Translations under genes and position numbers: made by a program
Part shown: positions 16,515 to 55,397 of the stretch, one piece after another
Numbering within the stretch: position 1 is the stretch's first letter
How the letters are laid out: each line of letters begins with the position of its first letter
Assembly (NCBI GenBank): GCA_003132425.1
Contig: PKXS01000142.1
Location: 653 to 64,652 of the forward strand
DNA: 64,000 nucleotides
Origin: Gammaproteobacteria bacterium
GTDB taxonomy: Bacteria > Pseudomonadota > Gammaproteobacteria > Steroidobacterales > Steroidobacteraceae
Direction: 5' to 3'
Notes under the pieces: generated by a model
The model's database searches: none
Seen by the model: the letters and a program-made list of their open reading frames with translations, nothing else
Told to the model about the DNA's origin: nothing

Positions 16515-18550
16515 GCATCCGCTTTCAATTGCTGATCGTAGCGCTCACCACACTGGTGCTGCCGTGGGCCGGCTGCCAATATGCGCGCGAGCTCGAGACC
16601 GCGCTGCGCGTCGCGCAGGAAAATGCGCTGCTCGCCAGCGCCGACACCATCGCGCGCGCGCTGTCGGCAGAACCGCAGCGTGTATTCCGCGATGTGGATG
16701 ACACCCCGGCGTTCAATGCCGCTCAGGGAGACATTTATGTCTTTCGGCTGCGCAGTCAACCTCTGCTGGACGGTTACCGCGACGATTGGGATATTCCGGC
16801 GGATCTACGGTCCCTGCCGGCGACGGGGAGCTTGACCGCGCGCCTGCAAGCGGGACTGACGGACCAATATCTGTACCTGTATCTCGAGGTCGATGAGCCT
16901 CATTTCACCCCCGAGCCCAGCAATGTTCATCCGGACCGCGATCGATTCGATAGAGTCGATCTGACTCTGCAACGGCCCGATGGGGCGCTGGAGTCTTACT
17001 TCTTCGCGACCAGCGCGCCTGGACTCATTGGAGCGCAAAGCGTCGTCAAAGGCGACGACGGCGTCGGTCATGCGGTGAGCGAGCCGCGCATTCAGGCCTT
17101 TTGGCTGCAGAGAGCAACAGGCTATCACTTGGAAGCGCGCCTGCCGCTCCGCCTGGTGGGGTCACGCCTGTGGATTGAAGCCATCGACGGCGAGGGCGGC
17201 GGAAAATCCGGCTTTGCCGGCGCGGACCCCCCGGCGGGGGGCCGATTGTTTTATGCGACGCCCGGCCTCGATGAGTTGCTGGCGACCTTCATACGCGCCG
17301 GCACCCGCGCCACGGTAATCGACTCCAACGCGCTGAAGCTCGGGGTGGCCGGCGATCTGCATTCTCACGACATCGGCGAGGAATCAGAGTCCGGCGAGAA
17401 TTGGTATCGGCGCTTCATGGCGGTCGACTCCTCGCAATGGCCGATTGCCTCGAACGCGCCCGATCGCCTCGAAGGGAAGAGCGTGACAACGGCCCTCGCC
17501 GGGCAACCGTACGCGGAATGGTTGCGGTCGGGGTCCCAAGAGTTACTGCTGTCGGCAGCCGCCCCCATCGTCATCGGCGGCCATCCGCGCGGCGCCGTGG
17601 TGCTCGAGCAAGCCGGCGATCAACTGCTGGACTTGCGGGATCACGCGCTGGCGCGCCTGTTCAACTTCACCTTGTCGGCCACCGCTCTGGCGGTGATCAT
17701 CATGTTCGGCTTCGCCACCTGGATCAGCCTGCGCATAGGGCGCCTGCGCGCCGCCGCCGATTCCGCGGTGAGCAACGATGGGAAAATCCGCTTGAATATG
17801 CCCGAAGCAGCAAGCAAGGACGAAATCGGCGCCTTGGCGCGTGGTTTCGAGCGCCTGCTGGCGCGCCTTAACGAGCACACGCAATACCTGCGGACGTTGG
17901 GCGGCAAGCTTTCCCACGAACTGCGCACGCCGCTCACCATCGTTCGCTCCTCGCTGGATAATCTGGAATCCGAGGGGGTGCGCGAGGACCAAAGAAAGTA
18001 TGTCACGCGTGCGCGCGACGGCGCCCAGCGCCTGCAATCGATCTTGAGCGCTCTGGGAGCGGCGGCGCGGGTCGAGGAGAGCATCAAACAGGCGGAACGC
18101 GTGAACTTCGATCTGCGCGAATTGTTGGTCTCGGCGACCGGCGCTTACCGGGATGGTTTTCGCGATGTGCGATTCGAGCTCGAGGCGCCCCCAGACGCCT
18201 GTTTCATGCGGGGCGCGCCGGACTTGATCGTCCAGATGCTCGACAAGCTCATCGAGAACGCCGTCGATTTCTGCCCCGCTGCGGGCCTGATTACCGTGCG
18301 CCTGGGCAGGTCTTTCGATCACTACGAACTCGAGGTGATCAATGATGGCCCGCCGATTCCGCAGGCCATGCTGGGGCGCTTGTTCGAATCGCTGTTCGAA
18401 CAGCGCCAGGGTCATGACGACAAACCGCATTTCGGCCTGGGTTTGTACATCGTGCGGCTGGTCGCGGAATTTCACGCGGGGCGCGCGGTCGCTGCCAATC
18501 GCGAGGGGGGGAGCGGTGCGGTATTCAAGGTGATGCTACCGCTGATTTAA
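16511..18550 (+). CDS. Sensor histidine kinase with large periplasmic domain
   Basis: GTG at 16511 overlaps the regulator stop (GTGA). TM1 (FQLLIVALTTLVLPW), a periplasmic region of about 430 aa, TM2, HAMP-like linker, H-box LSHELRTPLT, HATPase (NAVDF..., GLGLYIV). 679 aa. Confidence 0.9.
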   Translation: MSIRFQLLIVALTTLVLPWAGCQYARELETALRVAQENALLASADTIARALSAEPQRVFRDVDDTPAFNAAQGDIYVFRLRSQPLLDGYRDDWDIPADLRSLPATGSLTARLQAGLTDQYLYLYLEVDEPHFTPEPSNVHPDRDRFDRVDLTLQRPDGALESYFFATSAPGLIGAQSVVKGDDGVGHAVSEPRIQAFWLQRATGYHLEARLPLRLVGSRLWIEAIDGEGGGKSGFAGADPPAGGRLFYATPGLDELLATFIRAGTRATVIDSNALKLGVAGDLHSHDIGEESESGENWYRRFMAVDSSQWPIASNAPDRLEGKSVTTALAGQPYAEWLRSGSQELLLSAAAPIVIGGHPRGAVVLEQAGDQLLDLRDHALARLFNFTLSATALAVIIMFGFATWISLRIGRLRAAADSAVSNDGKIRLNMPEAASKDEIGALARGFERLLARLNEHTQYLRTLGGKLSHELRTPLTIVRSSLDNLESEGVREDQRKYVTRARDGAQRLQSILSALGAAARVEESIKQAERVNFDLRELLVSATGAYRDGFRDVRFELEAPPDACFMRGAPDLIVQMLDKLIENAVDFCPAAGLITVRLGRSFDHYELEVINDGPPIPQAMLGRLFESLFEQRQGHDDKPHFGLGLYIVRLVAEFHAGRAVAANREGGSGAVFKVMLPLI

Positions 18551-46661: not shown

Positions 46662-46717
46662 TCAATCAGGTTACTAGCCTCGGAGAGCGAAACCAAACCT
46701 GGATCATTGACAGCGCA

Positions 46718-46752
46718 TGCATTTTTATGCAGGATATGTGCAACTTTATGCA
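46718..46752 (+). promoter_or_regulatory. Tandem ARG-box-like operator upstream of argR
   Basis: TGCATTTTTATGCA (46718-46731, perfect palindrome) and TGCAACTTTATGCA (46739-46752), 21 bp start-to-start. A TTGACA -35-like hexamer lies at 46707-46712. Confidence 0.6.
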
Positions 46753-46764
46753 TTGAGTCGGAAA

Positions 46765-47235
46765 ATGCTCAGACCTGCGGGAGAAATCACCAGCGCGCCG
46801 GCGCGCCGAACGATGCTTGCGAAGATCATTCGCGAGCAGGCGGTCGGCCGTCAATCGGAGCTGGTCGCCATGTTGCGCAGGTACGGCCATTTCGCGACCC
46901 AATCGAGCGTGAGCCGGGATTTGCGCGAGCTGGGCGTGGCCAAATTGGGCGATCGCTATGTTCTCTCCGGCGGGCTGCTCGAGGCGGCGGCCGCCAAGAA
47001 TGATTTCTCGACGCTGAAGCAATTCGTCAATGCACAGTTGACGGCAGGCACGAATCTGACCGTGTTGAAGACGACGGTGGGCTCGGCGCAGAGCGTGGCG
47101 GTGGCCATCGACACCGCCCGATGGCCCGAAGTGGTCGGTACGATTTCCGGCGACGACACGATATTCATCGCCACTGCCGGAGCACGCGAGCAACGCAAGC
47201 TCGGCGAGCGGCTGCGCGCCGTCTTCGGACGCTGA
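46765..47235 (+). CDS. argR: Arginine repressor
   Basis: Track ORF starts at 46717, inside the operator. The ATG at 46765 gives 156 aa with wHTH (QSELVAMLRRYGHFATQSSVSRDLRELG) and C-terminal oligomerisation domain (GTISGDDTIFI). The ATG at 46813 is also possible. Confidence 0.88.
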   Translation: MLRPAGEITSAPARRTMLAKIIREQAVGRQSELVAMLRRYGHFATQSSVSRDLRELGVAKLGDRYVLSGGLLEAAAAKNDFSTLKQFVNAQLTAGTNLTVLKTTVGSAQSVAVAIDTARWPEVVGTISGDDTIFIATAGAREQRKLGERLRAVFGR

Positions 47236-47240
47236 TCCGC

Positions 47241-48467
47241 ATGACATCGACCTCGCTCAAGGGCGCAGAGCCCATTCTTCTGGCATTTTCGGGCGGTTTG
47301 GATACCTCCTTCTGCGTCCCGTGGCTCAAGGATACCTACCGGCGCCCCGTCATCACCGTCACGGTCGATACAGGCGGCATCGACCGCGAAGCCGCGAAGT
47401 CGCTGGCCGAGCGTTCGGTTCTGCTCGGCGCCGTCGAGCATCATTTGATCGACGCGCGCGACGCGTACTTCGAGCATGTGCTCAAATTCTTGATCATGGG
47501 CAATGTGCGGCGCGGCGCGGTCTATCCCTTGTGCGTAGGCGCGGAGCGCGTGCTGCAGGCGCAAACCATCGCGCAATTCGCCCTCAAGCTCCAAACCAAG
47601 ATGGTCGCGCACGGTTGCACGGCCGCGGGCAATGATCAGGTTCGCTTCGAAGTGGCGCTGCGTACCTTGGCGCCGGATTTGGAAATTATCGCGCCGGTGC
47701 GCGACCGCGCATTCAAGCGGCCGGAACAGCTCAAGTATCTTGAGGATCATGGGCTGCCCATTCCGCCATTCGGCGGCGCGTATTCGGTGAACCGCGGGCT
47801 CTGGGGCGTCACCATCGGCGGCAAGGAGACGCTGACCTCTCAGGGCAGCATTCCCGACGGCGCGTGGGTGCTGTCCAAAGACGCCTATTCGAATCCACGC
47901 CCGCCCGAGCGTCACCGTATCGGTTTCGAGCGGGGCGTTCCGGCGAGCCTCGACGGCCAGAAGCTGCCCGCCGTGGCGATCATAGAGGCGCTCGAATCGC
48001 TGGCGGGCCCCTTCGGTATTGGGCGCGGCATTCACTTGGGCGACACCGTCATCGGCACCAAGGGGCGCGTGGCGTTCGAAGCGCCCGCCGCCGAGGTGCT
48101 GCTGACGGCGCATCGGGAGCTGGAGAAACTGGTGTTGACGGGCAAACAGGCGCGCATCAAGGACTCCGTGGCCCAGCCCTACGGCGACCTGGTGCACGAG
48201 GGACAGCACTTGGATCCGGTGTGCCGCGACATCGAAGCACTGCTCGTGTCCTCGCAAGCTCGCGTCAGCGGGGAGGCCATCGTGTCGTTCCGCCCGGGGT
48301 CGGTATTCGTCGAAGGGGTAAGCTCGCCGTATTCGCTGATGGCGGCATCCAAAGGCGTGTATGGGGAAGCCGCCGGCGAATGGACGCCGACCGATGCCCT
48401 CGGCTACTCGAAGATGCTCGCGCTGACCGGAATCTTTTACAGACGCGCGGGAGCGAATCGACGATGA
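47241..48467 (+). CDS. argG: Argininosuccinate synthase
   Basis: Trimmed to the ATG at 47241. AFSGGLDTS ATP-PPase motif, HGCTAAGNDQVRFE. 408 aa. Confidence 0.95.
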   Translation: MTSTSLKGAEPILLAFSGGLDTSFCVPWLKDTYRRPVITVTVDTGGIDREAAKSLAERSVLLGAVEHHLIDARDAYFEHVLKFLIMGNVRRGAVYPLCVGAERVLQAQTIAQFALKLQTKMVAHGCTAAGNDQVRFEVALRTLAPDLEIIAPVRDRAFKRPEQLKYLEDHGLPIPPFGGAYSVNRGLWGVTIGGKETLTSQGSIPDGAWVLSKDAYSNPRPPERHRIGFERGVPASLDGQKLPAVAIIEALESLAGPFGIGRGIHLGDTVIGTKGRVAFEAPAAEVLLTAHRELEKLVLTGKQARIKDSVAQPYGDLVHEGQHLDPVCRDIEALLVSSQARVSGEAIVSFRPGSVFVEGVSSPYSLMAASKGVYGEAAGEWTPTDALGYSKMLALTGIFYRRAGANRR

Positions 48468-49552
48468 ACGGCATGCGCACGGTGGTTGTCGACAAAATCG
48501 CCTCGGTCACTCAGGCGCTCGGCCTGGCGCACGAGATTCGCATCGCCACGGAAATTCCTTGCGAGGAAGGGGTGGTATTGGTCGTCGAGATTCTCAACAA
48601 CAAGTCGACTTACAATACGCTGGAGCTCACCAGCGGCCGCATGGCGAAAGTCGCGCGCGGCGACGTGGTGGTCGGCGCGCTGGGTCATCGCAAGGCTTTG
48701 TTCGGCTATTCGGGGCACATCCCGCAGGCGCTCAAACCCGGCGACGTGATTCAGATGCTGAATATCGGCGGTGTGCTCGGAATCTGCGATTCCGCGACGC
48801 CGGACAAGGGCAAGCCTTTCGACTGCAGGGTGCTGGGCACGGTGCTCGCATTTCCCTTTCTGGGTGAGCGCATCGGCGTCCCCGCCAAGGCAGGATACAG
48901 GGCCTTGGACTACGACGCGGCGCTCGACGTGCGCGGCGTGCCGGTAGTCGCGCTTGCCGGCACCTGCATGGAGGCCGGCAAGACCGCCGCGGCATCCGCC
49001 ATCATTGCGCGCATGCGGCATCGCGGATTGGTCGTGGATGCCTTCAAAGCGACCGGTGTTTCGCTGCGCCGTGACATCATGGCGTTCGAGGATTCGGGCG
49101 CGCGCCGCACGATGATCTTTACGGACCTAGGAATCGTGACCACCACGGAGAAGTGCGGCCCGGCGCTGACGCGCGCCATGCTCACGGAGATGGCAAGCGG
49201 GCAGCCCGACGTCATCGTGTTCGAGCTGGGAGACGGTCTGCTGGGAACATACGGCGTACAATCGATCCTGCGTCAACCGGATATCAAGGCCGCACTGACC
49301 TGCGTCGTCCTTTCCGCCAACGATCCGGTCGCCGCTTGGGGAGGCGTGAAGTTGCTGCGCGAGCGTTTCGGCATCGAGCCCAGCGTCGTGACGGGCCCCG
49401 CAACGGACAATCAGGTCGGCGTCCAGATCATTCGCGACCAAATGAACGTCGCGGCGTTCAATGCGATCAGCAGTCCCGCGGATCTGGGCGACCATATCCT
49501 CGCCAAGTTGCGGCTGAGCAATGTGCGCGAGCCCAAAGTCGCCGGCGAATGA
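48464..49552 (+). CDS. Uncharacterised P-loop protein embedded in the arginine operon
   Basis: 362 aa. ATGA overlaps with the argG stop (48464-48467) and the argC start (49549-49552). GTCMEAGKT loop at aa 166-174. Does not resemble any canonical Arg enzyme. Confidence 0.8.
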   Translation: MNGMRTVVVDKIASVTQALGLAHEIRIATEIPCEEGVVLVVEILNNKSTYNTLELTSGRMAKVARGDVVVGALGHRKALFGYSGHIPQALKPGDVIQMLNIGGVLGICDSATPDKGKPFDCRVLGTVLAFPFLGERIGVPAKAGYRALDYDAALDVRGVPVVALAGTCMEAGKTAAASAIIARMRHRGLVVDAFKATGVSLRRDIMAFEDSGARRTMIFTDLGIVTTTEKCGPALTRAMLTEMASGQPDVIVFELGDGLLGTYGVQSILRQPDIKAALTCVVLSANDPVAAWGGVKLLRERFGIEPSVVTGPATDNQVGVQIIRDQMNVAAFNAISSPADLGDHILAKLRLSNVREPKVAGE

Positions 49553-50610
49553 GCCCACGCATGCCAACGATCGTGCTGGGGGGCACCGGCTACGTCGCCG
49601 GCGAGCTGCTGCGGCTGATCGCCGGACACCCGCGGCTCGAGCTTGCCGCCATTCTGTCGGATAGCCAGCCGGGCGCGCCCGTCGCGGCCGCCTTCCCGCA
49701 TCTGCGCGGCGCCTATCCGCACCTGAAATTCGCGAGCATCGATGACATCGACGCCATCATGCGGGCCACGCGAGAATCGGCGCTGTTTTGCGCCGCGCCC
49801 CACGGCGTTGCCGCAGGGATCATCGATCGTCTGCTCAAGGCCGCGGAGAATTCGGGCACGCTCGCGCATTGCGTCGATATCTCGGCGGACTTTCGCTACA
49901 CGAGCGCCGGCGCCTACGAAGCCGTGTACAAACACGCACACGGCGCGCCGGCAAGACTCAGGGAATTTACCTGCGCCATTCCGGAACACTTGCAAAAGTC
50001 GCCGACTCCGCACGTCGCGCATCCAGGGTGCTTTGCGACCGCGACGCTGCTCGCGAGCGTGCCGCTATTGGCATTGGGATTGACCGATACACGCCTGTTC
50101 GTGACGGGCATTACCGGCAGCACCGGCTCCGGCCGCAAACCGACCGCAGGCACGCATCACCCGCAGCGGCACAGCGATCTGTATACCTACGGCGCGCTCA
50201 GTCATAGGCATGTGCCGGAGGTCATCGCCTGCGCGAAGCTCGCCACCGGCGTCGAGGCAGAATTCAATTTCGTGCCGCATTCAGGCCCCTTTGCCCGCGG
50301 CATTCACGTCACCGTGCAAGCGAGTCTGAAGAAACCGCTGAGCAGCGCTCAGGCGCTGCAAGCGTTGGCGTCGTACTACCAGCACTGTCCGTTCGTGCGG
50401 GTCGGCGATACGGCACCGCGCGTCAAGGATGTCGCCACCAGCAACTACGCGCATTTAAGCGCGGTGACGAACGGCAACTCGATCGCCGTCATGTCGGCGC
50501 TCGACAATCTCAACAAAGGCGCCGCGGGCGGCGCCGTGCAATGGATGAACCGGCTTTTGGGCTTTGAGGAAATAACAGGTCTCACGGCGCCGGCTCCCGG
50601 TTGGACCTGA
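49549..50610 (+). CDS. argC: N-acyl-gamma-glutamyl-phosphate reductase
   Basis: Trimmed to the ATG at 49549 (alternative 49561, MPTIVLGGTGYVAGELLRL). Active-site HPGCFATA; C-terminal DNLNKGAAGGAVQ. Confidence 0.92.
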   Translation: MSPRMPTIVLGGTGYVAGELLRLIAGHPRLELAAILSDSQPGAPVAAAFPHLRGAYPHLKFASIDDIDAIMRATRESALFCAAPHGVAAGIIDRLLKAAENSGTLAHCVDISADFRYTSAGAYEAVYKHAHGAPARLREFTCAIPEHLQKSPTPHVAHPGCFATATLLASVPLLALGLTDTRLFVTGITGSTGSGRKPTAGTHHPQRHSDLYTYGALSHRHVPEVIACAKLATGVEAEFNFVPHSGPFARGIHVTVQASLKKPLSSAQALQALASYYQHCPFVRVGDTAPRVKDVATSNYAHLSAVTNGNSIAVMSALDNLNKGAAGGAVQWMNRLLGFEEITGLTAPAPGWT

Positions 50611-50619
50611 GGTGCATCC

Positions 50620-51786
50620 ATGGCGGCAACGAGTCTGACGGCAAAAGCCCTTACCAGCCACCTCGCGCAAGTATTCGCGCAATATCCGATCGAAGTGGCG
50701 CACGGCGAGGGTGTTTGGCTGTACGCGCGCGATGGGCGCAAGATCCTGGACTTTTACGGCGGCCACGCGGTCGCGGGCCTTGGCTACGGCCACCCCCATT
50801 GGCTGGCCGCGCTCGAACGGCAAGCCCGGCAAATGGCGTTTCAAACCAATGCCGTGGGCGTGGCGATTCGCGAGCACGCCGCGGCGCGCTTGGCGAAGTT
50901 TGCAGACCTTGGTCTCGATACGGTGTTCTGGATCAATAGCGGCGCCGAAGCCAATGAGAATGCGCTCAAGCTGGCCTTCAAACAGACCGGGCGCGGCAAG
51001 GCCGTGGCGCTGGAGCAGGGATGGCACGGCAGAACCGCCGCGGCCGGCGCGGTCACCTGGGGAGCGTTACACACCTGGTATGGCTTTCCGCGCACGCCTT
51101 TCGATGCGAGCTTCGCGCCGCGCAACGATCCCGCCGCCGTTGAGCGATTCGTCGACCGAGATACGGCCGCCGTCATCGTCGAGCCGGTGCAGGGCGTGGG
51201 CGGCGCCTATGATGTGGGAAAACCGATGTTGCAGGCGCTGCGCCGGCGATGCGACGAGGTGGGCGCCTTACTGATCTTCGACGAAGTGCAATGCGGAATG
51301 GGCCGCACCGGATCGCCGTTCGCCGCGAATCATCACGGCGTGACGCCGGACATCATCACCACCGCAAAAGCATTGGGAAACGGCTTTCCGGTTTCAGCGT
51401 TGCTGCTGTCAAAGCACGTGGCGAAACATATCAAGTACAACGACATGGGAACGACCTTCGGCGGCGGCCCGATGGCCTGTGCTGCCGCCGAAGCCGTGAT
51501 CGAGACGATCGAATCGGAATCGCTGCTCGCGAACGTGCGTCAAGTGTCGGCGTACATCCGTTCGAACTGCATCGTCGGACCGATCACCGGGTCGCAGGGC
51601 GCCGGCTTTTTGCTGGGTTTGAAGACATCGCGGCCCGCCAAGGAAGTGCAGGCGGCGCTGCTGGAAAAAAATATTTTGACCGGTACCAGCGGCGACCCCA
51701 ACGTGCTGCGCCTGTTACCGGCGTACATTTTGAACGAAGGCCATGTCGATCAATTATGCGATGCGTTGGTGAAGATTCCGGCATGA
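50620..51786 (+). CDS. argD: Acyl-ornithine aminotransferase (class III PLP aminotransferase)
   Basis: 388 aa. GHPH, SGAEANE, DEVQCGMGRTG, TTAKALGNGFP (PLP lysine). Confidence 0.9.
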   Translation: MAATSLTAKALTSHLAQVFAQYPIEVAHGEGVWLYARDGRKILDFYGGHAVAGLGYGHPHWLAALERQARQMAFQTNAVGVAIREHAAARLAKFADLGLDTVFWINSGAEANENALKLAFKQTGRGKAVALEQGWHGRTAAAGAVTWGALHTWYGFPRTPFDASFAPRNDPAAVERFVDRDTAAVIVEPVQGVGGAYDVGKPMLQALRRRCDEVGALLIFDEVQCGMGRTGSPFAANHHGVTPDIITTAKALGNGFPVSALLLSKHVAKHIKYNDMGTTFGGGPMACAAAEAVIETIESESLLANVRQVSAYIRSNCIVGPITGSQGAGFLLGLKTSRPAKEVQAALLEKNILTGTSGDPNVLRLLPAYILNEGHVDQLCDALVKIPA

Positions 51787-52778
51787 GGCGCTTCATTGAT
51801 CTGGCGGATTTCAATCGAGATCAGATTCTCGACCTGCTGGCGCTCGCGCGGGCGCTGCAGGACAAGCCGGAACCGCGGGCGCTCGCCGGCAAGATCCTGG
51901 GGTTGGTGTTCTTGAACCCCTCCTTGCGCACGTTGGCCTCCTTCCAAGCGGGCATGGCGCGGCTCGGCGGGAGCTCGTTCGTGATCACGCCAGGGCAGGG
52001 CACCTGGCAGCTGGAAACTCATCTCAATGCAATCATGAACGGTGCCGCCGCCGAACATATTCGCGAAGGCATACCGGTGCTGGCATCCTACTGCGACGCG
52101 CTCGGCGTGCGCGCATTCGCCGATGGTCGAAGCTTGAACGAGGATCTGCGCGAGCCGCTGTTCGAAATGATTGACGGGCTATGCGATAAGCCGCTCATCA
52201 ATATGGAATCGGCAATGAACCACCCCTGCCAAGCACTCGCGGACTGGCGGACGATGGACGAGCTGAAGGTTCCGGCGCGGGCCAAATTCGTCTTAAGTTG
52301 GGTCTATCATCCAAAGGCGTTGCCCTTGGCGGTTCCCGCCGCGGCCGTGCAAATGGCGGCGATGCGCGGCATGGAAGTGGTGGTCCTGCGTCCGGACGGA
52401 TTTGCGATGCCGCCGCAAATCATGGACAAGGCCCGCTTGGCGGCCGCAAGCGCCGGCGGTTCGGTCACCGAGACCGGCGATCGCGCGGCCGCGATGGCCG
52501 GCGCGAGCGTGCTGTATGCGAAGGAATGGGGCACGACTCTGTATTACGGCGACACCGAGGCCGATTCACGCCTGCGGGCGGATCTTTCGCAATGGTGTGT
52601 CCGGGAAAGTTGGTTTACCGGCGCCCTGCCCGATGCCAAGCTCATGCATTGCCTACCGGTGCGCCGCAACGTCGCGGTCGCCGATGAAGTACTGGACGGT
52701 CCCCGCGCCGTGGTCAAGCGCGAGGCCTTCAATCGTCTGACGGTGCAGATGGCCGTTCTGCACCGCATGCTGGCGTGA
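51783..52778 (+). CDS. N-acyl-L-ornithine carbamoyltransferase (AOTCase/SOTCase-type, ArgF')
   Basis: ATGA overlap with argD. 331 aa. NPSLRT instead of the OTCase STRTR, plus HPCQ and HCLPVRRN. Gapless by-eye alignment to remembered Xanthomonas AOTCase. Confidence 0.87.
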   Translation: MRRFIDLADFNRDQILDLLALARALQDKPEPRALAGKILGLVFLNPSLRTLASFQAGMARLGGSSFVITPGQGTWQLETHLNAIMNGAAAEHIREGIPVLASYCDALGVRAFADGRSLNEDLREPLFEMIDGLCDKPLINMESAMNHPCQALADWRTMDELKVPARAKFVLSWVYHPKALPLAVPAAAVQMAAMRGMEVVVLRPDGFAMPPQIMDKARLAAASAGGSVTETGDRAAAMAGASVLYAKEWGTTLYYGDTEADSRLRADLSQWCVRESWFTGALPDAKLMHCLPVRRNVAVADEVLDGPRAVVKREAFNRLTVQMAVLHRMLA

Positions 52779-52802
52779 ACGACCCGCTTAGGAGTAATTG
52801 CG

Positions 52803-53750
52803 ATGATCATGAGCCGACCTGATCCTTCAGTTGCGGTGCGGGCGCTGAAGAGCGCCGCGCCTTATATCCGCATGTACAAGAACAAAGTTTTCGTCATCAA
52901 AGCGGGCGGCGCCGTGTTCAGCGACGAGATTTCCACGCGTGGTCTGATCGAACAAGTCGCGATCCTGCATCAGGTGGGCATCAAAACCGTATTGGTCCAC
53001 GGCGGGGGTCCGCAGCTCGACAGCCTGCAAGCGTCGTTGGGGATAGACACGCGCATGGTGAACGGCCGGCGCGTGACCGATCAGAAGTCGATCGACGTGA
53101 CATCGATGGTGCTCAACGGCCTCATCAACACCCGCATCTTAGGCATATGCCGGGAACTCGATATCGAAGCCATCGGATTGAGCGGCGTCGACGCCGGCCT
53201 CATACGCGCGCACAAGCGCCCGCCGGTCCCGGTGTCGGCAGGGTCGAGCGAAACCGTGGACTACGGCCTCGTCGGCGATATCGATTCCGTCAACACCATG
53301 GTCATCGAGAAGCTGTTGGCGGACGGTTTGATGCCGGTGGTCAGTCCACTATCGGCGGACTCGAACGGCACTTTGCTGAATATCAACGCCGACACGGTGG
53401 CGGCGGCTATCGGCGGCGCGCTCGCGGCGGAAAAACTGGTGCTATGCACCGGCGCGCCGGGAATTCTCGAGCGCGTCGGGGATCCGAGATCAGTGATCTC
53501 CTTCACGGACATCCAGGGCTTGAAGCGATTGCGCGACCAGGGCAGCTTGAAGGACGGTATGCTGCCCAAGGCGCTTGCCATCGAAAATGCGATTCGCGGC
53601 GGCGTGCGGCGCGTGCACGTGATAACGTACAAGTCGGCTGATAGTTTGCTCGCCGAAATCTTCACCAACGAGGGCACGGGCACGCTGGTGGTTGCGGATC
53701 TGAAGGCCTTGAGCCCCGCCGAGCAACAAAGCGCCGCGGCAAACGCTTAA
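52803..53750 (+). CDS. argB: Acetylglutamate kinase (stand-alone, no fused GNAT domain)
   Basis: 315 aa. VIKAGGA, VLVHGGGPQ, NINADTVAA. Confidence 0.93.
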   Translation: MIMSRPDPSVAVRALKSAAPYIRMYKNKVFVIKAGGAVFSDEISTRGLIEQVAILHQVGIKTVLVHGGGPQLDSLQASLGIDTRMVNGRRVTDQKSIDVTSMVLNGLINTRILGICRELDIEAIGLSGVDAGLIRAHKRPPVPVSAGSSETVDYGLVGDIDSVNTMVIEKLLADGLMPVVSPLSADSNGTLLNINADTVAAAIGGALAAEKLVLCTGAPGILERVGDPRSVISFTDIQGLKRLRDQGSLKDGMLPKALAIENAIRGGVRRVHVITYKSADSLLAEIFTNEGTGTLVVADLKALSPAEQQSAAANA

Positions 53751-53772
53751 TACCGGCGAACGCCTAATACCT

Positions 53773-54963
53773 ATGACTCGACTTTGGGACAAGGGGACTT
53801 TACTCGACGCGCGCGTCTTGAGCTACACCGCGGGGGACGATTACCTCCTGGATAACCGCCTGGTGCGTTACGACATTCAGGCATCCATCGCGCATGCCGA
53901 GATGCTCGGCGAGCAATCGCTCGTATCGACCAAGGATGTGGCCGAGATTCGCGACGCGTTGACCGCCATCGGCGCCGAACACGCGAGCGGCGCGTGGCGC
54001 ATCACGCTGGAGCAGGAAGATTGCCAAACGGCCATCGAGAACCTGCTCATCGCGCGCATCGGCGCGACCGGCGGACGCTTGCACGCGGGCCGCTCGCGCA
54101 ACGACCAAGTGCTCGCCGCCCTGCGCCTGTACCTAAGCGAGGCGGCGCAGGCGCTGCGCAACGGCGCAATCGCAGTCGCGGCGGCGCTCGAGGCCCTGGC
54201 CGCGCGCGACGGCGCCGTCGTGTTGCCCGGCTACACCCATATGCAGCAGGCGATGCCGAGCAGCGTCGCGCTGTGGGCGCTTGGGTTTGCATCCGAGATC
54301 CACGACGATGCCGAAGGTCTGCAACAGTGCCGGCGGCGCATCGCCAAGAATCCGCTGGGGTCGGCCGCGGGTTATGGAACGCCGAATCTTGACGTGAGCC
54401 GCGAGGCGACCCGCCGGCGGCTAGGCTTTGCGGTGAATCAGGAACCAGTGACCGCGGTTCAGCTGTCACGCGGCAAGGCGGAAGCGCAGCTATTGTTCGA
54501 GATCACGCTGCTCACCCAGGATACCGGACGGCTGGCGGCGGATTTATTGCTCTTCTATACGCAAGAGTTCGGTTTCGTGAGCCTGCCCGACGGTTTCACC
54601 ACCGGTTCTTCGATCATGCCGCAAAAGCGCAATCCCGATGTGTTCGAATTGATCCGCGGGCGAAGCGCGGTGGCGCAAGCGGCGCTGAACGAAGTGCTTG
54701 GCATTTCGCAAAAGCTCAGCTCCGGCTACCATCGTGATCTGCAGCTCATCAAGCAGCCGTTGTTTCGCGCCATCGATTCTTGTCAGCAGACGCTCGAGAT
54801 CTTGCCGAGCGCGCTCGAGGGGGTGCGTTTCAGAGCGGAAAATATCCGGCTGGATCCCGGCATTCATGCCGCCGCCGCGGCAAATGCCCTGGTGGCGAAA
54901 GAAGGCATTCCATTTCGCGAGGCCTACCAGCGGGTGGCCGGCACGCTCAAGAAAACAAAATGA
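53773..54963 (+). CDS. argH: Argininosuccinate lyase (short form)
   Basis: 396 aa. RYDIQASIAHAEML, GRSRNDQV, fumarate-lyase signature GSSIMPQKRNPD. Ends right after GIPFREAYQRV. Confidence 0.9.
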   Translation: MTRLWDKGTLLDARVLSYTAGDDYLLDNRLVRYDIQASIAHAEMLGEQSLVSTKDVAEIRDALTAIGAEHASGAWRITLEQEDCQTAIENLLIARIGATGGRLHAGRSRNDQVLAALRLYLSEAAQALRNGAIAVAAALEALAARDGAVVLPGYTHMQQAMPSSVALWALGFASEIHDDAEGLQQCRRRIAKNPLGSAAGYGTPNLDVSREATRRRLGFAVNQEPVTAVQLSRGKAEAQLLFEITLLTQDTGRLAADLLLFYTQEFGFVSLPDGFTTGSSIMPQKRNPDVFELIRGRSAVAQAALNEVLGISQKLSSGYHRDLQLIKQPLFRAIDSCQQTLEILPSALEGVRFRAENIRLDPGIHAAAAANALVAKEGIPFREAYQRVAGTLKKTK

Positions 54964-55397
54964 CGATTTGGCGCAGCCTGCTCACCCTCGACGCCTTGAA
55001 TGCCGGAGGCGACGGCACACTCATCCGGCACCTGGGCATCGTATTCACGGAAATCGGCGCGGACTTCGTGCGCGGCACCATGCCCGTGGATGAGCGCACC
55101 AAGCAACCCTTTGGTTTGCTGCACGGTGGGGCGTCGGTCGCCCTCGCCGAGACCCTGGGCAGCATGGGCGCGACAATGTGCGTCGATAGGTCTCAATATG
55201 TGTGCGTGGGCCAGGAGATCAACGCCAATCATGTGCGCGCGGCGCGCAGCGGCCAGGTCACCGGCACGGCACGGCCGCTGCACATCGGCGGCCGCACTCA
55301 GGTTTGGACCGTCGAAATCCTCAATGAGGCCGGAAAATTGGTTTGCACCTCGCGATTGACCATGGCGGTCATCCGGGTCGACGGCCGCGACCCATGA
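54960..55397 (+). CDS. PaaI-family hotdog thioesterase
   Basis: ATGA overlap with the argH stop. 145 aa. QPFGLLHGGASVALAETLGS motif typical of PaaI/YigI/EntH-type thioesterases. Confidence 0.85.
   Translation: MTIWRSLLTLDALNAGGDGTLIRHLGIVFTEIGADFVRGTMPVDERTKQPFGLLHGGASVALAETLGSMGATMCVDRSQYVCVGQEINANHVRAARSGQVTGTARPLHIGGRTQVWTVEILNEAGKLVCTSRLTMAVIRVDGRDP

Follow-up and report, generated by a model that had tools for sequence, protein, structure and literature searches.

The first step of arginine synthesis has so far been assigned to enzymes of the GNAT type or the ArgJ type. For Steroidobacter denitrificans DSM 18526, Price et al. ('Novel enzymes for amino acid biosynthesis in diverse bacteria and archaea: GapMind 2026', bioRxiv 10.1101/2024.10.14.618325, Appendix 2) predicted that the protein A0A127FCT3 is an alternative N-succinylglutamate synthase, on the basis of its gene neighbourhood, its inverse correlation with ArgA, a weak similarity by Foldseek to the DgcN structure 7XRJ (E 1.4e-7, rmsd of 5.6 Å) and the residue at position 92 of the accompanying ArgF'. 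These authors assumed an acyl-coenzyme A (CoA) transferase by analogy with DgcN, pointed out the lack of ArgE and the ability of S. denitrificans to grow on defined medium, and do not mention a thioesterase. Here, we analysed a 64,000-nucleotide stretch (hereafter the window; contig PKXS01000142.1, positions 653 to 64,652) from a soil Steroidobacteraceae metagenome-assembled genome (MAG; GCA_003132425.1), in which a nine-gene arginine operon (46765-55397) carries as its third gene an ortholog of this protein, hereafter X (72% identity over 360 aligned residues, i.e. full length). The S. denitrificans gene (ACG33_RS14135, old ACG33_14140) occupies the same operon position, together with a succinyl-type ArgF' and in the absence of ArgA and ArgJ; its operon also ends with a thioesterase gene, and nothing material differs between the two operons. 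Judged from its sequence, the operon of the window is a further member of a family with a published predicted function. The prediction for X is therefore already in print, and the case presented here was reached independently. New here are a negative result on the thioesterase, a reading of X as related to dethiobiotin synthetase (BioD), and a hypothesis on the role of DapE.

Taken together, gene content, genomic context and residue signatures make it rather likely that X is the synthase of N-succinyl-L-glutamate, i.e. the first enzyme of a succinyl-type route to arginine. The source genome measures 4.08 Mb in 146 contigs, with an estimated completeness of 96.6% and a contamination of 5.7%. 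Judged by the names of near-identical proteins and contigs, it belongs to an uncultured member of the Steroidobacteraceae. An earlier note on this DNA had described the operon as lacking steps 1 and 5 of the pathway, and we indeed found no ArgA/ArgJ-type and no ArgE-type gene within it. The ArgB of the operon consists of an amino-acid-kinase domain only, with no fused acetyltransferase (GNAT) domain, and the ArgA and NAGS/K profiles match its kinase part only (positions 7-292 of 441). The gap at step 1 extends to the whole genome, from which ArgA, ArgJ and short GNAT synthases are all missing: the ArgA model TIGR01890 matched nothing but the kinase part of this ArgB, ArgJ gave no profile match, and the short GNAT synthase models NF005921 and NF005840 returned weak GNAT noise only (contigs C79, C131 and C59), all below cut-off and none near arg genes. 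Similarly, ArgJ was not detected in any of the 61 Steroidobacteraceae genomes of our family sample, and searches of five further X-bearing genomes belonging to four families detected no ArgA and no ArgJ. Since step 1 is thus unaccounted for while every other step has a gene, X becomes a strong candidate for it, and this candidacy is supported by conservation, synteny, gene fusion and the ArgF' signature as well as by the inventory.

X is present in 60 of the 61 family genomes, at 73-90% identity and across 40 genera, the sole miss being a genome that is 83% complete. In a broader sample of 301 gammaproteobacterial genomes, full-length orthologs were restricted to a few lineages, and a relatedness search of loci with a 10-sequence X alignment returned Steroidobacteraceae only. 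The gene lies between argG and argC in the window and in 80 related loci, and this argG-X-argC core is kept in three other gammaproteobacterial genomes whose operon is rearranged into argD-argF'-argB-argH-argG-X-argC. Arginine operons with X occur in at least four phyla: it follows argR-argG and precedes argC in Eisenbacteria and Fimbriimonadaceae, belongs to an argR-X-argC-argD-argF'-argB cluster without argG in Thermoanaerobaculia, and stands as argG-X-argC, with no argR called, on a metagenome contig (L127). Even a homolog with 30% identity has argG on one side and an OTCase gene on the other. Two of the X operons found outside the family carry an M20 peptidase gene between argB and argH, and because X and this M20 deacylase share the same operons, X is not the deacylase itself. 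In addition, X is fused to ArgB in a 626-residue protein encoded on four metagenome contigs, three of which each derive from a different sample, an arrangement that by analogy mirrors the known synthase-kinase fusions. An X-ArgC fusion was also found in metagenome proteins, and could reflect an assembly frameshift across overlapping genes.

Several of these loci have further particularities. The X-like/ArgB-kinase fusion genes (L128 8001-9881, L129 6077-7957, L130 402-2282) are free-standing and lie outside any arg operon; an arginase gene of opposite orientation is found at a distance of about 230 bp, with a 40-residue open reading frame (ORF) in between. Contig L127 also encodes a 152-residue GNAT (17613-18071), which adjoins an M20 peptidase gene and argH on the opposite strand.

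The nature of the acyl group can be approached through ArgF', which is the only OTCase-family gene of the genome (tblastn, E 1e-5). Its best match in the PDB is 3l02, the E92A mutant of the Xanthomonas N-acetylornithine carbamoyltransferase, and at the positions of Glu92, Asn185 and Lys302 of the X. campestris enzyme it displays Ala, Pro and Ala, as read off the alignment. According to the review of Shi and colleagues (PMC4581275), acetyl enzymes have E, N and K at positions 92, 185 and 302, against A/S/P/V/Q, P and V/I/E in succinyl enzymes. In a survey of 73 X-linked ArgF' proteins, position 92 was invariably occupied by A, S, V or P, and position 185 by Pro. The N-acyl-citrulline (ArgF'-type) pathway put forward in the earlier note is supported. 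For the acyl group, which that note had left unspecified, the ArgF' signature points to succinyl: the route is probably the succinyl variant, with N-succinylated intermediates. The NCBIfam name 'N-acetylornithine carbamoyltransferase' would then probably be imprecise for such ArgF' proteins, a naming problem that GapMind also met for BT3717 of Bacteroides (PMC7311316).

The predicted structure of X (AlphaFold model built on 76 homologs, predicted local distance difference test score (pLDDT) of 94.4) combines a beta-rich N-domain of approximately residues 1-155 with an alpha/beta, BioD-like P-loop C-domain. The latter contains the motif GTCMEAGKT at 166-174, Lys195 and E254-L-G-D-G. In an alignment of 44 diverse homologs, G172, K173, T174, K195, E254 (within E-x-G-D-G) and D287 of the C-domain, together with R76 of the N-domain, are invariant, and D204 is nearly so; among them, we take G172/K173/T174, K195, D204 and E254 to correspond to the ATP/Mg-site residues of BioD. 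No Pfam family was assigned to X. The DUF1611_C family (PF07755) reached 13.5 bits for a gathering cut-off of 25, over residues 159-198 only, and another sub-threshold hint was a MobB match of about 40 residues around the P-loop; the Acetyltransf (GNAT) family gave no match even at E<=10, and BioD family models did not match X in the family scans. When the PDB was searched with the full model using Foldseek (best 50 of 168 matches at E<=0.001 inspected), only the C-domain aligned, to dethiobiotin synthetases and to GTPases of the signal recognition particle (SRP) type, with the BioD structures 3of5 and 1dts among the top matches (target-normalised TM-score <=0.61). Sequence-profile searches of the PDB also had a dethiobiotin synthetase as best match (E. 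coli BioD at E 0.03 with the 76 sequences, M. tuberculosis BioD at E 3.3e-4 with the 44 diverse sequences), aligning the GT-x4-GKT P-loop and the downstream Lys, equivalent to Lys37 of BioD. Searched alone, the N-domain (all-beta model, pLDDT 89) had no structural neighbour in the PDB with Foldseek (best E 0.88, TM-score <0.3). Membership of X in DUF1611 was rejected, as the match is sub-threshold and the N-domain is unlike any solved structure; in the model comparisons, the P-loop half of X looks more like dethiobiotin synthetase than like DgcN. The X family comprises 1,449 clusters at 50% identity (E<=0.001), whose members, where named, are annotated as hypothetical.

Whether the genome can remove the acyl group is a separate matter. 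The earlier note had called for a search for canonical argA, argJ and argE elsewhere in the genome; the first two were not found, as said above, and the third was. A canonical ArgE is encoded on contig C21 (1464-2675; TIGR01892, 383 bits over 1533-2654 for a cut-off of 298), so that step 5 is covered in this genome, outside the operon. Contig C21 is 6.3 kb long, and its ArgE gene is flanked by ORFs that resemble, by eye, an insertion sequence transposase and an integrase. Canonical ArgE was detected in 10 of the 61 family genomes, and 17 have neither ArgE nor the thioesterase. Other candidates for a conserved deacylase were rejected. The M20 protein of C40, a 2.9-kb contig, is without equivalent among 60 relatives and is possibly a contaminant; the carbamoylase-like M20 protein of C115 occurs in only 19 of the 61 genomes; the M20 proteins of C105, C135 and C91 have hydrophobic N-termini that look by eye like signal peptides. 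For the alpha/beta-hydrolase gene divergent from the operon, 81 X loci had sufficient upstream sequence: a homolog occurs in only 31, in only 16 of them directly upstream of the operon, at ~2-2.5 kb from X, and it is absent outside the order. An AstE-type desuccinylase was not found by profile search of the genome.

DapE, by contrast to these, is encoded in the genome above cut-off, and in three ~100%-complete genomes (S. denitrificans, G001 and G030) it is the sole DapE/ArgE-type protein at E<=1e-5. This enzyme desuccinylates N-succinyl-diaminopimelate, and there is a precedent for sharing between the two pathways, E. coli ArgD doubling as an aminotransferase of the diaminopimelate pathway. 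We infer that DapE, as the only conserved desuccinylase candidate, would also serve N-succinylcitrulline, or else that an unrelated hydrolase does.

From these elements, we propose an ArgR-controlled operon that would make arginine through N-succinylated intermediates, following the Bacteroides-type route. X would convert glutamate into N-succinyl-L-glutamate in place of a GNAT-type synthase or its equivalents (ArgA, ArgJ, BT3761), drawing either on succinyl-CoA, by analogy with DgcN, or on free succinate and ATP via an acyl phosphate, by analogy with BioD. N-succinyl-L-glutamate would then be phosphorylated by ArgB, reduced by ArgC and transaminated by ArgD to N-succinylornithine, which ArgF' would carbamoylate to N-succinylcitrulline. 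A desuccinylase encoded elsewhere (the ArgE homolog of C21 and/or DapE) would free citrulline, and ArgG and a short ArgH would complete the synthesis. The thioesterase would be co-transcribed without being a core enzyme of the pathway.

The earlier note had set exactly two genes of unknown role against two missing steps. On the pairing that this suggests, X would perform step 1 and the thioesterase step 5, by deacylating N-acyl-citrulline directly or via a CoA thioester. The start of the thioesterase gene does overlap the argH stop, and the gene directly follows argH in ~35 of ~60 complete family operons, S. denitrificans included. However, the pairing breaks down on the canonical ArgE of C21 and on the protein itself, a PaaI/YbdB-type hotdog thioesterase of the acyl-CoA kind and not an amidase; the hotdog fold is not known to hydrolyse amides. 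Its scores against the equivalog models of MenI (170 bits for a cut-off of 226) and EntH (159 for 237) are below threshold. The phylogenetic profiling that the note had suggested separates the two genes: X is core to the family, whereas the thioesterase is patchy, with an ortholog in 42 of the 61 genomes at 47-67% identity (73-90% for X), absence from the other 19, a location on another contig or far off on the same chromosome in several (G009, G059 and G029), and no occurrence in any of the X operons examined outside the Steroidobacteraceae. Because 17 family genomes have neither it nor canonical ArgE, the thioesterase is not a general deacylase, and this role was rejected on its distribution; the pairing as a whole is hardly credible. 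Judged from its sequence and occurrence, the thioesterase is a lineage-specific accessory gene, dispensable to the pathway and no replacement for ArgE. As for X, a few observations weigh against its being the synthase. The third signature residue of ArgF', Ala, is neither the Lys of acetyl enzymes nor one of the listed V/I/E, leaving a match at two positions out of three; the similarity of X to DUF1611/DgcN spans about 40 residues below threshold, with no recognised acyltransferase domain, and 7XRJ is neither among the best 50 of 168 Foldseek matches nor among the profile-search matches; the genome is a MAG of 146 contigs with 5.7% contamination; X and a GNAT coexist on L127 and hence are not strictly exclusive; and the actual synthase might be a divergent GNAT encoded at another locus of the genome. 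This last idea would make X a conserved passenger with an unrelated function, and draws on the fact that GNATs are numerous and hard to assign, on the weak matches of C79, C131 and C59 and on the position of the L127 GNAT near argH. Yet none of the matches attains a synthase cut-off or neighbours arg genes, the genome of the window lacks a homolog of the L127 GNAT, and a passenger would explain neither the synteny across phyla nor the fusion with ArgB, which makes this explanation improbable.

X could also act in arginine synthesis without being the primary synthase, either as an ArgJ-like recycler of the succinyl group from N-succinylcitrulline or N-succinylornithine, or as a nucleotide-dependent subunit that assists or regulates ArgB or ArgC. 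A recycler would economically fill both gaps with one enzyme in a family where most genomes are devoid of canonical ArgE, but it needs a priming synthase, none of which was found, and X operons of other phyla have their own M20 deacylase. A subunit role would be in line with those metagenome proteins in which X is fused to ArgB or ArgC and with the frequent function of SIMIBI P-loop proteins as regulators or chaperones, such as the SRP GTPases among the Foldseek matches; the degree of conservation of X across 40 genera is nevertheless typical of an enzyme under strong constraint. We regard both variants as unlikely. A more serious competitor keeps X at the same step with another chemistry, in which X, as a BioD/CobQ-like amide ligase dependent on ATP, would activate free succinate as an acyl phosphate and join it to the amino group of glutamate, independently of CoA. 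BioD/CobQ-class enzymes usually build amide or ureido bonds by way of phosphorylated carboxylates, the sole PDB profile matches of X are dethiobiotin synthetases with the P-loop and Lys aligned, BioD is among its top structural matches, and the presumed ATP/Mg-site residues are conserved as described above. On the other side, DgcN, the characterised relative to which Price et al. refer, uses acetyl-CoA according to their preprint (bioRxiv 10.1101/2024.10.14.618325), and since CoA itself contains an ADP moiety, the two donors are not told apart by an intact P-loop. Ligase chemistry is thus a tentative alternative, and a broader proposition is slightly more speculative still, namely that X, with its BioD-like P-loop domain and a beta-domain not seen before, is the first of a class of N-acyl-amino-acid ligases that use ATP and no CoA, while DapE doubles as N-succinylcitrulline desuccinylase in most Steroidobacteraceae; if true, the arginine and diaminopimelate routes would share their deprotection step. 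The choice between acyl-CoA transfer and ATP-dependent ligation is testable with the protein of a culturable species.

Features of the arginine operon and its upstream region (window coordinates; aa, amino acids; TIGR00707 is the acetylornithine/succinylornithine transaminase family model)
Feature	Position	Strand	Evidence
Alpha/beta-hydrolase, 219 aa	46002-46661	-	Carboxylesterase/phospholipase type by eye; divergent from the ARG-box region
Promoter/operator region	46707-46752	+	TTGACA hexamer at 46707-46712; two 14-bp ARG-box-like palindromes
Palindrome TGCATTTTTATGCA	46718-46731	+	Read directly, upstream of argR
Palindrome TGCAACTTTATGCA	46739-46752	+	Read directly; spaced 21 bp from the TGCATTTTTATGCA palindrome
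argR, arginine repressor, 156 aa	46765-47235	+	Pfam Arg_repressor E 5e-12, Arg_repressor_C E 2.6e-18; TIGR01529 102 bits, below cut-off 130
argG, argininosuccinate synthase, 408 aa	47241-48467	+	TIGR00032 277 bits, above cut-off 268; both Pfam domains
X, predicted N-succinyl-L-glutamate synthase, 362 aa	48464-49552 (alternative start 48473)	+	No Pfam family
argC	49549-50610	+	TIGR01850 279 bits, above cut-off 234
argD, N-acyl-ornithine aminotransferase, 388 aa	50620-51786	+	Aminotran_3 E 5.6e-87; TIGR00707 318 bits, below cut-off
argF', N-acylornithine carbamoyltransferase with SOTCase-like signature	51783-52778	+	NF003384 333 bits, above cut-off 288
argB, N-acylglutamate kinase, 315 aa	52803-53750	+	TIGR00761 210 bits, above cut-off 151
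argH, argininosuccinate lyase, short form, 396 aa	53773-54963	+	TIGR00838 302 bits, above cut-off 280, model positions 23-389 of 455 only
Hotdog-fold acyl-CoA thioesterase (PaaI/YbdB/MenI-like), 145 aa	54960-55397	+	PF03061 E 2.2e-18, 66.8 bits; TIGR00369 127 bits, cut-off 36.6

The layout of the operon corresponds to that given in the earlier note: the ORF list and the family scans both yield nine co-directional genes in the order argR-argG-X-argC-argD-argF'-argB-argH-thioesterase, the ATGA overlaps at argG/X, X/argC, argD/argF' and argH/thioesterase can be read directly from the sequence, and the remaining gaps of 5, 9, 24 and 22 nt do not exceed the claimed 24 nt. The argG/X overlap hinges on the choice of start codon, since codon 4 of X is another ATG in the same frame, the start used by most orthologs including the S. 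denitrificans protein, from which argG and X would be 5 nt apart with no overlap; a GGGAG located 10 nt ahead of the first ATG favours the overlapping start. Upstream of argR, the two palindromes are putative ArgR-binding sites. Of 73 related loci surveyed, 62 have a TGCA-N6-TGCA palindrome within 200 bp 5' of argR, and at least 18 of these 62, among the examples listed, have two exact copies 21 bp apart. A promoter and terminator scan returned nothing above chance. Finally, ArgH is a short form without the ~55-65 C-terminal residues (model positions 390-455). This form was observed in essentially all Steroidobacteraceae loci, with or without the thioesterase, as well as in one genome of the same taxonomic order and in one Fimbriimonadaceae operon (L044-L123, L033 and L126 altogether), other X-bearing lineages having a full-length ArgH.

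Distant members of the X family were found in other contexts. In other Gammaproteobacteria, paralogs with ~30% identity belong to a conserved gene set with a fused ATP-binding cassette exporter (L038 7501-12445; L039 7690-12507; L034 6406-9176), to which two of the loci, L038 and L039, add a phosphate-selective porin O/P and a protein of 297-298 residues (marginal match to polyhydroxybutyrate-depolymerase-type esterases in L038, no Pfam match in L039). This set may be a system making and exporting an N-acyl amino acid or a small amide. An archaeal member (L137 5984-8923) lies directly downstream of an AstE/aspartoacylase-type gene and is convergent with a RimK-type ATP-grasp ligase gene, in surroundings of ribosomal and eIF2-gamma genes, and some distant paralogs adjoin M20 peptidase genes. 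The M20 and AstE/aspartoacylase-type neighbours fit a family that makes N-acyl amino acids.

If X has the predicted function, it would represent a third solution to the first step of arginine synthesis, unrelated to the GNAT and ArgJ types and distributed among bacteria, mostly uncultured, of four phyla or more. Metabolic reconstructions would lose a gap that recurs in them, and such genomes would no longer be called arginine auxotrophs. Among the described systems, the succinyl route of Bacteroidetes (the GNAT synthase BT3761/Cabys_1732, the N-succinylornithine carbamoyltransferase (SOTCase) BT3717 and the desuccinylase BT3549) follows the same pathway logic, with an SOTCase-type ArgF' and, as in the window, a synthase gene no later than third in an operon headed by argR; it differs in that its synthase is a GNAT, to which X is unrelated, and in its desuccinylase, which has no equivalent within the operon of the window. 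BioD (3fgn, 1dts, 3of5) resembles the C-domain of X in its GT-x4-GKT P-loop, its Lys after strand 2 and its E-x-G-x-G motif, but is a single-domain protein of ~225 residues that closes a ureido ring, whereas X has an additional N-domain of 155 residues. DgcN (D-glutamate N-acetyltransferase, DUF1611, PF07755, 7XRJ) shares with the predicted X a P-loop of the BioD/CobQ class and a reaction on the amino group of glutamate, and departs from it by acting on D-glutamate with an acetyl group, where X would act on L-glutamate with a succinyl group. The DUF1611 N-domain is Rossmann-like, while that of X is all-beta.

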